Below the pieces are notes generated by a model that ran no database searches, was not told the origin of the DNA, and was given only the letters and a program-made list of their open reading frames with translations. From positions 23,167 through 87,166 of IMG/VR virus record IMGVR_UViG_3300025438_000009: a stretch of 64,000 nt of DNA. One strand, given 5' to 3'. Every line of letters starts with the position of its first letter. Within the stretch, counting starts at the first letter, position 1. Position numbers and translations under genes: made by a program. This DNA comes from a virus. Shown one piece after another: positions 45,139 through 52,876 of this stretch.

Positions 45139-48100
45139 GTGGCACTTGATAATGTGGTTGGCTCCGCATATATTATTGTCCACTCTCTGACCGACAAAAT
45201 AAATGATGACCTAAGGCGAGGTTTTAAAAACTCTGACCGAGGGATGACCCGCTCTGGTGAGACCATGGGCGAGGCATTCACTAAAGGGTTCAGTCGAGCA
45301 TCCAAATCTACTAACGTATTTACTAGATTTTCTCGGGCCATAAAAACAGCAATCCCGGAAGCTGAAGCTACAAGGCTACAGTATACGAAGTTAATTAGAA
45401 TATCGTATATTGTTGGACCAGCAATCTCTGTTCTTGTCGGAGGAATTTCCAGTCTTGTAGGTGGTTTGGGTGCTTTGGTTGGCTCCGCTGGAGCTGCCTC
45501 TGCTTCTGTAGTTTCATTGGGTAGTATTTTTGCAGCCCTCAAAATAGGTATGTCCGCTGCAAAGCTTGCTCTTAAAGGGGTTTCAGATGCTCTGGGCAAG
45601 CTTAATCAGGCTGCAGGTGGTGGTGCCGGTGCTGTAGATAACTCTCGCCAGATTGAGGACGCCGAAAGACGCCTTGCTCTTGTTATTGAGAGCAATAGGG
45701 AACGATTGGCAGATGCCAACAAGGCGTTGGCGCGGGCGCAATTAGAGCTAAACGAGGCTTTTACAGCTGGGCTGGAAGAAATACAGCAGATTGGCTTTGG
45801 AGCAGAGAACGCTGCTTTAGCGGAGAAGAGAGCATCTTTAGAACTTGAGAAAGCTCGTGAAGCGCTCGCCAAAGCCCAAGACTTACCACCTAACTCTAGA
45901 ATCCGTAGAGAAGCTGAACTTGCCCTCGAGGAGGCTGAGCTTAAATACAGGCAAGCAAAAGACCTAAGCTCCGACTTAAATGATGAGCAGGACCGTCTGG
46001 CTCAAACTGGAGTAGCCGGAACTAACGCCGTTACGCAGGCTGTAGAAAGACTCGCTGCTTCAGAAATTGCTAAGGCTCGGGTTGTGCGCGACGGTGCCAG
46101 AGCCCAGGAAGATGCAGAGCGTGCTCTCAAGGATGCTTTGGAGGGTAACGACCAAGCTATGGGTGGTGGGTTGAATCCTTTTGAAGGATTGAACGAGTAT
46201 CAAATAGAATTTGTTAAGTTCCTTTTTGGGCTGAAGCCACTGTATGAAGAACTAAAACTTGTTGCATCCGAGGCGTTCCTACCGCCTCTCCAAGAGGCTA
46301 TAACTCTTATCGCAGATAAGGCATTCCCTACAGTGCGCGATGGGATAGCTACTGTTGCTGGGGCTATGGGAACAGCATCTATATCCGTTGCTAATGCCCT
46401 GACAAGTTCCACCAACCTTAACAAAACTGCGTACATCTTCAAGGCATCTGCTGCGATTATTCGTTCTCTAGGAAGAACCCTAGGAAATGTCTGGGGTTCA
46501 GCTTTGTCACTTCTTACAGGTGCAAATCAGATGACGTTAGACTTTGTCAATTTCTTGGATAAAAAGTCTTCAGCTTTTGCTTCTTTCCTTAACGTAAAGC
46601 AGGCTACTGGGGAGCTCAGTGATTTTTTCTCGAGGGCTGGAGACATTGCCGCTGATTGGGGCACAATATTTGGGAATATTGCATCGGGCTTTGGAAAAAT
46701 AATCCAAGCCAACTTCGGTCCTGGTTCTGGTGGGGACTATCTAGTCCAATGGCTCATTGATGCCACAGAAAAATTTAGAAACTTAGACGACACGGCAGGC
46801 GGTAGTCAGAAACTATCTGACTACTTCCTGGGCGTGTCAGTCAACAGCCAAAAGATTCTTTCTTCTATAGGAGCACTTGCTAGTGAGCTATTTAAGTTGG
46901 GAGATAATCCAGAAATTGGAGACACTTTTGACATTCTTGCCGAAGGTGCGCCTGCAGTAGGAATTATTGCTGAAAAATTTTTAGAGGCTGCTCCCGCACT
47001 GGGGAAGTTTGTGGAGCACTTTGTAAAATTCACCGAGGTACTGACAGACACAGACTCTACAGCAATATTTTTGGACACTCTGGCTACCGCTTTAGAAGTT
47101 ATAGTAGGAATTTTAGAGAACGAGCTGGTACTGGGAATACTTATTGCTGTTAGTCAAGTGGGGGCGTTAGCCCTAGCAATCGGAACTATACAGAAAGTTT
47201 CTCGATTTGCCTTTAAAGCTGCAGCCGGAAGTGTTGGATTCTTTAGCAAGCAAATTGGGGCAACTACCACGGCAATACAATCAGCAGGAGTGATTATTGC
47301 TGGTAAGGGGGAAAAAGCAAAAGTGGCAAGGGGTAAGTTTGCTGGAATGGTTAAGGGTGGGCTAAAAATGGGTGGCACTCTTGTTGCTTTCTCTGGGATA
47401 GCTACTGCAATTGGGACTGCCACAAGAGGAGCGCAACTTTCTCAGGGGGCGTATGACGAATTTTATGCTTCTGCTAGTGGAGTGAAATCTCTCGACTTTA
47501 ACAGGGTGTGGGAACAGCAAGAAATATCAATGTTTAATTTTAGAGGCAGTGCTGACCAGGCAAGCGTGTCTATGGAGCAGATGACCTCAGGATTTTATGG
47601 AGCAAATAAGGCAATTAATAGTTTTCTTGGGGGCACGGTGGGCTTAATTATTCCTGAGTTTAAGAACGCTTCTGACAGCTTTGCAAAAGCTGAAGATACT
47701 TTGTTCAGTTTTGGAGAGGCTATAGGCGATGTTGCGAGCGTAAATCTCGGTCAAGCTCAAGCATCTTTTGCAGACTTGGCAAGTCAGACAGATGGCTCGC
47801 AAGAGTCCCTTATGAATCTTTTTAACAGGATGCCTGGGCTAAAGGATGAGCTACGCGCTTTAGCTTTTGCTAACGGACTGGCAACAGACGACGTGTCCCT
47901 TCTGGATATAGCTCAGGGGAGGAGCTACGGCTCTTCTAGGATTCTTAAGAAACAATTTGACGAGACATCAGCTGCTGCGCTTGATACGACAGGAAAAATT
48001 CAAGCCCTTGCTGATGCCATTAGTGGGTATACAGGTGAGGCGATATCCGCTGAGCGTCAGGCGATTGACTATATAGAGACGACAGGTGCACTCACGGACG

Positions 48101-52000: not shown

Positions 52001-52876
52001 GACGAAGGTTTTGACAAGACCACCGAGGCGGGTCAAAGAAATTTAACTGCCTTCTTGGATGCAGCTGAAGCTATGAACGATATGACTGTTGCTAACTACG
52101 AGAATGGTGGAAGTCAAGAAGACTTGAGGAGAGAGTACGAGGAAAATAGAACTGAGCTTATTAAACAAGCAGAGGCCTATGGCAAGACCGAAGAGGAAGC
52201 TGAAGAGTATGTTAACACTCTTTTAATGACACCTGAAGAATTAGAATCTTCTATTGAACTAAGTGGTGCACCTGAGAGTAAAGAAGGTATCGAGGGGGTG
52301 CAGGGTGCAGCATCAGAGTACGCAGGAGAAGATAATCGAAAGCGCAGGTATGCCCCCATCCTGAGTGCTACAAAAGACACTGCTGGTCTTAGCTGGTGGG
52401 AGACCTTAAGAAACCAGTTCAACCAAAACTACAACGTCAGATACAACGCCTATGGCACTATTACCCAGGGCGCAAATGGAATGCTACAGTCCTATGCAAA
52501 TGGTGGCTTCGCGTCAGGTATCTACCGAGGACGCGCTGGCAACCTGTACAAGTTTGCTGAACCGGAGACACGCTGGGAAGCATTCATTTCAGGTAAACCT
52601 GGGATGCGTGACCGTAACGTAAAAATTTGGGAAGAAGTCGGTAAACGTCTTGGTGTGAACATGATGCCCAACGCTGTCGGTAACATGTACTCTCAGGTTG
52701 CTAGCTCAATGGCGAGTGGACCCACGTCAACTGCTTCTGATGAGAGCTCACCAAGTCAGAACTATAATAATATTGTAATTACAGTTAATCCTTCAGAGAA
52801 GCTAGACAAATCAACACTTTCAACGACAATTTCTAAAGAGATATCATTTCAAATGCGTAGAGGCTCGGTGGCATAA
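49043..52876 (+). CDS. Tape measure protein, copy 2 (1277 aa)
   Basis: Colinear paralog of copy 1; GAGGAG RBS; coupled to the next tail gene. Confidence 0.9.
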   Translation: MAIVGDAHIIVRAITDKVEGDIRRGFRGADKIGRQAGESMGDAFGRGFSKKSGKNVFSRFADGIAAAIPEAEEARLKYAALTRTFLSLGPAISVLIGGVSSLVGGLGALVGSAGGAAASMASLGSIFVGVRVGFASAKLALSGVSDALKALNNAAGGGAVADNTEQIEEAQRRLAMVIEDNRERLTEANQRVEESQIAYNEALAEGQEELQKIGFESEDAALAEERAAIELERARETLARTQDLPPNSRVRRESALAFKEAELNYRQAKDRASDLNAEQDRLAQTGVAGTDVVIRATERLADAEVNKAKVVRDGIRAQEDAERALRDAMETAKGGGGGKDPFANLNKFQKDFVLFLNSLKPLYDELKLAASEAFLPPLQEAITLLAEKAFPTLRDGIGVVAGAMGQAAISIALAVTSASNLNKTAYIFNASAAIIRSFGRTLGNVWGIALSLISAASPLAVRFLNFVEERTGVFESFLNVKQATGELDAFFSRAGDIAAGWGRIIGNIFGGIGQLIQANFAPGSGGDYLVQWLIGATDKFRNLDDTAGGQNKLSDYFLDASVNTQKIFSSIGALLTELIKLGDNEAIGETFDILAEGAPAVGQILEKLIEAGPAMAELVVGLNEFAAKLTDSLSAIIFFETLNAALKVINALMANEFIANIVIALSQVAAFALALGTIQKTAKFVFFAVSGSVGFFSGAIGTAISKVQTLGLALGTQTTAKAIAARAALGGMVSAGAKAVGLIAVFSGVASAMSAMNREAEISDIAFNNFNDSIRGITETDFDSIWQNTAIDNFGRSISTTSDDLAGITGKWYDWNNGTAAALNTITLGLVPAVRDAAKVGQVADDTLFSFGETLAGVATVNLGQAQDAFKDLASNTDGSNEQLLKILNTMPQYKEELRTLSEENGFATDDMSLLGLSMGDTTASGKILADQFNNTSAATLDTSGKIQDLANTIRGFTSDAISGERAAIRFEEQMDALTEATQEQKDEGFDKTTEAGQRNLTAFLDAAEAMNDMTVANYENGGSQEDLRREYEENRTELIKQAEAYGKTEEEAEEYVNTLLMTPEELESSIELSGAPESKEGIEGVQGAASEYAGEDNRKRRYAPILSATKDTAGLSWWETLRNQFNQNYNVRYNAYGTITQGANGMLQSYANGGFASGIYRGRAGNLYKFAEPETRWEAFISGKPGMRDRNVKIWEEVGKRLGVNMMPNAVGNMYSQVASSMASGPTSTASDESSPSQNYNNIVITVNPSEKLDKSTLSTTISKEISFQMRRGSVA

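Follow-up and report, generated by a model that had tools for sequence, protein, structure and literature searches.

Does the lumen of a siphovirus-type tail hold one kind of tape measure protein (TMP), or two? The usual view is of a homotrimer, encoded by a single gene, that both measures the tail and serves as the DNA entry conduit, and a lineage encoding two TMPs asks whether the lumen can hold a mixed core. We analyzed a 64,000-nucleotide stretch (the window; positions 23,167 to 87,166) of the IMG/VR virus record IMGVR_UViG_3300025438_000009, which comprises 87,166 b at a CheckV completeness of ~51% and carries two tandem TMP genes, TMP1 and TMP2 (Table 1). The pair is real, old, conserved, under selection and linked, and a cassette within TMP2 has been exchanged. 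We tentatively favor, at a probability of about 0.45, the reading that TMP1 and TMP2 contribute non-equivalent subunits to a single tail core and entry channel.

An initial inspection of the letters and open reading frames (ORFs), hereafter the sequence-only reading, had described two intact, colinear TMPs of 1275 and 1277 amino acids (aa). ORF analysis and BLASTP bear this out, with an alignment running from residues 6/3 to 1266/1273 of TMP1/TMP2 and containing 695/1277 identities (54%), 70% positives and 22 gap positions. All four of the blocks listed as common to the two proteins (ASEAFLPPLQEAITL, NLNKTAYIF, PGSGGDYLVQWLI and FAEPETRWEA) are found in both. The best PHROG match of each is the tape measure family phrog_4197 (E 2.6e-41 for TMP1 and 2.1e-40 for TMP2), seven further TMP PHROGs match TMP1 and seven match TMP2, and the similarity thus extends to curated siphovirus/actinophage TMP families (phrog_4197, phrog_6090). 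Hydrophobic blocks at ~aa 85-117 (or 85-135) and ~640-685/750 (or 640-760) are present in both copies, and the blocks at ~85-117 and ~640-685/750 also in six relatives, so that each protein is, as expected of a TMP, a long and mostly helical chain with hydrophobic membrane-type segments. An AlphaFold2 model of TMP2 aa 640-1277 is nearly all helix at low confidence (mean predicted local distance difference test score of 47.8), and a Foldseek search of this model against the PDB gave no matches at E <= 0.001. Similarly, a Pfam search at E <= 0.01 identified no family in either protein, and hence no peptidoglycan-hydrolase domain that would distinguish one copy from the other. The whole record contains exactly two TMP matches, and both genes lie where a TMP gene is expected, between the chaperone genes and the Dit/Tal genes; the TMP2 stop shares 1 nt with the ATG of the downstream gene. 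TMP1 and TMP2 occupy different frames in the window and in a related contig, L085, which rules out a read-through fusion. Overall, these data support TMP1 and TMP2 as genuine TMP genes, both intact, within a single siphovirus-type tail module.

The record is a metagenome assembly, which leaves room for an artefact in which an assembler joined the TMP genes of two strains in tandem; the sequence-only reading had itself named such a chimera as the finding that would overturn its claim. Among the matches listed, the junction stretch was found in 24 runs from 24 studies, of salt-lake and freshwater metagenomes; five of these runs may be the source of the record. Bridging was examined in contigs of four runs other than the source, from four studies and a different assembly pipeline, and a contig spans the junction in every one (X11, 44467-51320; X6, 46773-50626; X7, 47550-49320; X13, 48883-51468). 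Furthermore, the same arrangement of two genes and intervening spacer occurs in L085, a 7330 b contig from a separate metagenome that was recovered in a metagenome search yielding at least four loci. L085 encodes a TMP1-like protein of 1272 aa (66% identity to TMP1), a 77-nt spacer and a TMP2-like protein that is 80% identical to TMP2 over 649 aa, at which point the contig ends; its starts are GTG and TTG, and GAGGAG plus 7 nt precedes the latter as in the window. The 54% identity of TMP1 and TMP2 is likewise divergence at the level of paralogs and not of strains. The bridging contigs and L085 exclude a chimeric assembly, and we consider the probability of an artefact negligible. Five further TMP1-like/TMP2-like pairs are suggested, indirectly, by the equal sizes of the longest contigs that carry the two types of protein (25,642, 15,880, 8,856, 41,494 and 23,705 b). 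Viral-contig searches with the single proteins P0002, P0077 and P0015 gave no relative, and one with P0001 found only a 4.7-kb fragment; a genome-contig search gave no relative either, and hence no prophage or host clue. A megablast search of 44000-54000 against a phage collection returned no match.

The sequence-only reading had also noted a ribosome-binding site for each gene and a -10-like TAAAAT box between them. The former is confirmed, with AAGGAG 6 nt before the TMP1 GTG and GAGGAG 7 nt before the TMP2 TTG. The box is indeed present at 48983-48988 and is kept in the L085 spacer, but it is without a -35 partner and was not called by a promoter scan. The scan of the 76-nt spacer for promoters and terminators made no call, and RNA folding of the same 76 nt gave no stable structure (z -0.27). 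Nonetheless, the window and L085 spacers are 71% identical despite saturated synonymous sites. A conserved 11-mer of the spacer occurs twice in the window, a count attained in 16 of 100 shuffles.

How old is the pair? Synonymous differences between the two genes had been described as plentiful, and they prove to be saturated: the proportions of synonymous (pS) and nonsynonymous (pN) differences between the paralogs are 0.75 and 0.31, respectively. Comparison of the window with L085 gave a pS of 0.75 and pN of 0.23 for the TMP1 orthologs, and a pS of 0.77 and pN of 0.14 for the N-terminal half of the TMP2 orthologs. In sliding windows of 100 codons, pS between TMP1 and TMP2 never fell below 0.61, and there is therefore no sign of recent gene conversion between the paralogs. 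A quick IQ-TREE run of 26 proteins (nine of TMP1 type, ten of TMP2 type, and outgroups at 44-50% identity) placed the TMP1 clade and the TMP2 clade as sisters, with Shimodaira-Hasegawa-like approximate likelihood ratio test (SH-aLRT) values of 100 and 99, respectively, and 100 at their joint node. This topology places one duplication before at least four sublineages diverged, and the reading frame is unbroken in each of the 19 clade members, at 1269-1275 aa for the TMP1 type and 1277-1286 aa for the TMP2 type. Judged from these sequence comparisons, both genes show long-term purifying selection and, given synonymous saturation and the sister clades, the duplication is old.

A redundant duplicate heading for loss, with one copy dispensable and neutral, is very improbable on this evidence. 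It would be in keeping with the general fate of duplicates, and the excess of nonsynonymous over synonymous changes (9 versus 2) that TMP1 shows among near-identical strains could mean relaxed constraint. However, synonymous sites are saturated, yet frames remain open at 1269-1286 aa in every member with pN << pS, and the pair is kept in L085, where TMP1 is only 66% identical. The excess comes from L005, a fragment of a near-identical strain with 1 difference from the window in the 2327 nt upstream of TMP1. Its positions 2328-4682 match 45139-47493 (the first 2355 nt of TMP1) with 11 differences, 9 nonsynonymous and 2 synonymous, which are small numbers. Four of the 11 cluster at TMP1 aa 618-623, where L005 matches the TMP2 codons; gene conversion was considered for this site and rejected, since the other strains also share the TMP2 codons and the window is the exception. 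A comparison of X11 with the window gave 25 nonsynonymous and 3 synonymous changes in TMP1 among the 33 differences listed (62 further ones lie outside these) and was not relied on.

The claim that siphoviruses normally have one TMP gene holds for relatives outside the clade. Of 318 candidate stretches from an IMG/VR profile search, 306 proved to be relatives, and the best 80 loci were kept; in none of these best 80 of 306 did tblastn detect a second copy of the TMP N-terminal half. A complete TMP frame is present in 50 of the 80 loci, with at least 3 kb on either side in 31 of the 50; the 50 frames measure 1004 to 2031 aa. Likewise, each of the 30 records among the matches listed has a single matching place. 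The nearest cultured relatives are the Microbacterium phages Pumpernickel, Big4, Zooman, A3Wally and Cece, with genomes of 186-195 kb and the same tail gene order. At 42-46% identity, their TMPs match only the N-terminal 43-55% of TMP1, whereas their C-terminal halves are unrelated to those of the window, and Pumpernickel (gp94) and A3Wally (gp97) each have one annotated TMP, of 1447 and 1474 aa, respectively. No single-copy member was seen inside the duplicated clade, from which few lineages have been sampled.

Divergence between the copies is unevenly distributed. Per 100 codons, the copies share 62-77 identities across aa 51-650, a level that, as the sequence-only reading had pointed out, drops strongly after the hydrophobic segment (26-33 per 100 at aa 701-850) and near the C-terminus (29 per 100 at aa 1049-1137). 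Proteins of the TMP1 clade end in ...KRAEWEESYQK, with E1268, W1269, E1270, E1271 and Y1273 invariant in nine rows of the alignment. TMP2 proteins and outgroups end in ...RRG.VA, and the TMP1 C-terminal end is thus derived; the N-terminus of TMP1 also bears a 3-residue extension. Consistent with this, the stem branch is 0.30 for TMP1 versus 0.19 for TMP2 and every outgroup scores closer to TMP2, which together make TMP1 the more derived copy. The faster evolution and new conserved termini of TMP1 would suit a scenario in which one copy no longer acts as a ruler, being carried along or ejected in another capacity (accessory channel, pilot or decoy), and tail length depends on the other alone. 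We regard this as improbable. The copies are still colinear over their full length and retain the two hydrophobic blocks along with the conserved C-terminal region, their domain content is unchanged, and neither shows a large insertion or deletion (indel), in a family where TMP frames span 1004 to 2031 aa.

A second line of variation, new in this analysis, is found in TMP2. Between near-identical strains, TMP2 shows 0-5 differences per 50 residues almost throughout, but 14, 35-36 and 5 in the three successive blocks of aa 751-900. The segment responsible, aa 776-860, directly follows the second hydrophobic block and is a cassette exchanged between phage lineages. Compared with the TMP2 of the window, that of P0008 has 99% identity outside the cassette but 38% within it, and the P0008 cassette is instead 91% identical to that of P0010, whose TMP2 is 72% identical elsewhere. 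The same segment in TMP1 follows the rest of the protein (58-67% versus 66-74%), and the cassette is not common to TMP1 and TMP2, which share 24-43% identity there. A diverged replacement of the same length occurs in three of the four runs, at 51369-51614 (X6, X7) and 51369-51578 (X11), and in X6 the replacement contig (depth 9.22) stands beside a window-type contig (depth 12.7). The cassette type of the window (type A) was found only in its own 90% cluster. We rejected the cassette as a target of a diversity-generating retroelement: no RVT_1 match is present in the 87-kb record (about half of the genome), no direct repeat of 51368-51622 occurs in the window, and the alleles are 38% identical in protein, far beyond adenine-only mutagenesis. 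The cassette may be a host-contact or defence-evasion segment under diversifying exchange, and its swapping gives indirect support to the proposal that pressure from entry or defence acts on these genes. Separately, three of the four runs have a 3-nt insertion (GGT) in TMP2 at position 50041 relative to the window, which fits 1278-aa TMP2 variants in the protein cluster.

To date, the only solved chain matched by our profile is gp16 of Douge, an actinophage of mycobacteria (PDB 8zdo_S, E 1.1e-11), with positions 119-579 aligned to chain residues 113-551. In its structural report (8ZDO/8ZDQ; Cell Rep 2025, PMC13033339), gp16 is described as a homotrimer that runs through the tube, with its last 42 residues plugging the lumen of the Dit hub, and as having two transmembrane regions, with a proposed release to form an envelope channel. 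Gp16 and the window pair are thus siphovirus TMPs that each have two hydrophobic or transmembrane regions. In contrast to the window, Douge has a single TMP gene, whose 1699-aa product resembles the window pair in the N-terminal part only; its hub plug (residues 1658-1699) is not alignable in sequence with either protein.

We propose that an ancient tandem duplication of the tape-measure gene would have given rise to the pair, which was then presumably fixed in an uncultured siphovirus-type lineage of salt-lake and freshwater metagenomes. The genes would form one late tail operon (chaperone set, TMP1, the 76-nt spacer, TMP2, Dit and Tal) with a ribosome-binding site for each. The single tube, chaperone, Dit and Tal genes argue for one tail. 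Both TMPs keep the conserved N-terminal part, two hydrophobic blocks, a helical body and the FAEPETRWEA region, and so each has a full TMP kit; given this, both proteins would most likely occupy the lumen of one tail tube and be expelled from it to form a trans-envelope channel. All sublineages seen have retained both copies, each with conserved ends of its own, and this points to non-equivalent subunits that could assemble as a mixed tape-measure complex such as a 2:1 trimer or 3+3. The ~85-aa swappable segment of TMP2 beside the membrane block may then meet a variable host factor or a TMP-sensing defence. A more specific version, with an obligate mixed complex in which each chain has a distinct hub plug and head-proximal end and the TMP2 cassette is a swappable entry-specificity module, is rather unlikely. 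If true, the cassette would determine the host membrane factor, or the TMP-sensing defence, encountered by the ejected channel, and post-adsorption entry would be modular and exchangeable by recombination, independent of the receptor-binding proteins. The phage is uncultured, and the functional steps are all inferred. A complex prediction with two chains of TMP1 aa 1130-1275 and one of TMP2 aa 1130-1277 scored 0.15 and 0.09 against a mark of 0.32 and was counted neither way.

Several observations weigh against two subunits in one core. Solved TMPs, the closest one included, are homotrimers in a hub of threefold (C3) symmetry (PMC13033339), and a mixed trimer would break that symmetry. Retention of both copies rests on four to five lineages, one of them seen directly, and the copy count leaves out the nearest outgroups (P0012/P0077 and P0014/15/17). 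The middle branches of the TMP1 and TMP2 sub-trees are not mirror images, and so the copies have not simply co-diverged; cassette exchange may account for this. The presence of both proteins in the virion, their mixing in an oligomer and the role of the cassette are, moreover, deduced from genes.

Length belongs on the same side of the balance. The sequence-only reading had held that length conservation despite divergence means that both proteins serve the same tail. The lengths do match, but not beyond chance (P 0.24-0.54), and the argument is weaker than stated. The paralogs differ by 13-14 small indels, and net differences of 2, 12 and 17 aa in three pairs gave P values of 0.24, 0.46 and 0.54 relative to random indel directions, where two of the three pairings were inferred from equal-sized contigs. 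Across these pairs TMP1 shortens while TMP2 lengthens (1275/1277, 1272/1284 and 1269/1286). The match thus comes from a lack of large indels and does not demonstrate co-adjustment. For Douge, a TMP of 1699 aa, a tube of 269.6 nm and a ring rise of 41.8 Å are given (PMC13033339); by arithmetic, and assuming the Douge extension per residue, one ring would correspond to ~26 aa and 1275 aa to ~200 nm. Every pair length difference is then smaller than one ring, and the lengths of TMP1 and TMP2 are compatible with one tail, although the match alone proves little.

In another explanation, the two genes are alternative rulers: each tail would contain a homotrimer of TMP1 or of TMP2, giving two virion types of equal tail length whose differing ejected channels hedge against host variants or TMP-sensing defences. 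This fits the solved homotrimers in a C3 hub, the full set of TMP parts in each copy and the arms-race-type variation between near-identical strains (the TMP2 cassette swap, and the 11 differences in TMP1 of L005), as well as the coliphages in which TMP regions set entry-factor use and defence sensitivity. Loss of a redundant copy should be tolerated under such an arrangement, yet no clade member with a single copy was seen among the few lineages sampled. The two proteins are 54% identical and have long conserved helical blocks, and if co-expressed they would need to have evolved self-specificity against mixing. Moreover, termini peculiar to each paralog are more easily reconciled with distinct positions than with equivalent plugs in one hub. 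We judge alternative rulers somewhat unlikely and continue to favor two non-equivalent subunits of one core, for which the paralog-specific termini should be visible in an asymmetric reconstruction of the tail tip.

Paired TMP-like genes are known from jumbo myophages. The Staphylococcus phages MarsHill, Madawaska and Machias are reported to have two potential TMPs (bioRxiv 10.1101/2020.12.14.422802); as in the window, one phage carries two adjacent TMP-like genes, and their helical products are predicted to have transmembrane domains. In that account the MarsHill type has a contractile tail and one copy carries peptidoglycan hydrolase domains and is annotated as a tail lysin, whereas the window pair is part of a siphovirus-type module, enzyme-free and colinear end to end. 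A literature search returned no description of a siphovirus with two full-length TMP genes, though gene tables in supplements could name such pairs; the nearest topics were chaperone pairs, repeats within one TMP and the MarsHill pair. What is new is thus a siphovirus-type, enzyme-free, colinear and lineage-conserved pair with a cassette.

For the cassette, the best functional analogy is a ~100-aa TMP segment of lambda-type coliphages in which otherwise similar TMPs differ. According to the report (Nature 2026, PMC13190303), local segments of lambda-type TMPs coincide with dependence on the inner-membrane complex ManYZ and with sensitivity to SNIPE, an injection-stage nuclease, and escape mutations map to the TMP in coliphages. 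These phages differ from the window in that they have one TMP each, and their hosts are Gram-negative. A swapped cassette behind a membrane block points to a determinant of post-adsorption specificity or defence evasion inside the TMP, which fits with TMP segments deciding the use of an inner-membrane factor and sensitivity to an injection-stage nuclease (PMC13190303).

Table 1. Tape-measure pair and surrounding tail genes in the window (positions in the 64,000-nucleotide stretch)
Feature	Position	Strand	Remarks
TMP1	45139-48966	+	GTG start; 1275 aa; AAGGAG at 45127-45132
Spacer	48967-49042	+	76 nt; conserved blocks TAGTAAAATTA, AGAGACA and CCGAGGAGC (ribosome-binding site)
TMP2	49043-52876	+	TTG start; 1277 aa; GAGGAG at 49030-49035
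TMP2 exchangeable cassette, aa 776-860	51368..51622	+	directly after second hydrophobic block
Major tail (tube) protein, single copy	40876..42144	+	phrog_792, E 1.4e-21
Head-tail adaptor, then tail completion protein			between tube gene and small ORFs
Probable tail assembly chaperone, single set	44308..44706	+	assigned by position
Second small ORF, possible chaperone extension frame	44778..45128	+	61% identical ortholog in L085
Dit-like distal tail protein, single copy	52876..55935	+	phrog_5577 minor tail protein, E 1.4e-18
Tal-like/hub-like giant minor tail protein, single copy	55938..62246	+	2102 aa; assigned mainly by position
Fibre gene	62249-63610		matches tail fibre and L-shaped tail fibre assembly PHROGs

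The gene order of the module is tube, adaptor, tail completion, two small ORFs, TMP1, TMP2, Dit-like, Tal-like and fibre. The first small ORF, 44308-44706, has an 80% identical ortholog at the corresponding place in L085, where the presumed chaperone pair spans 688-1469, and the two small ORFs are not paralogous to each other. An open -1 frame (44664-45128) overlaps the end of the first, starting 43 nt before its stop; no canonical slippery heptamer was found in the overlap (44664-44706), and a family search of the presumed chaperone ORFs (44308-45128) gave no match. The Dit-like protein has weak SPP1_Dit and Sipho_tail matches, both below the cut-off. Seven fn3 stretches, two CBM_4_9 stretches and a weak match to the immunoglobulin (Ig) domain of tip attachment protein J are present in the Tal-like protein, and this set of fn3, Ig-like and CBM_4_9 domains suggests a carbohydrate-binding tail tip.

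Three further features of the window were recorded. The fibre gene contains two 83-nt direct repeats within 62588-62814, which are 71% identical and 144 nt apart. The head region upstream of the capsid gene includes giant ORFs at 21141-29699 (2852 aa) and 31040-36994 (1984 aa). The early region at 5329-13811 carries six 50-nt promoter-like units (TTTGACA..N..TA...T, with conserved flanks) that are 60-72% identical to a reference copy.

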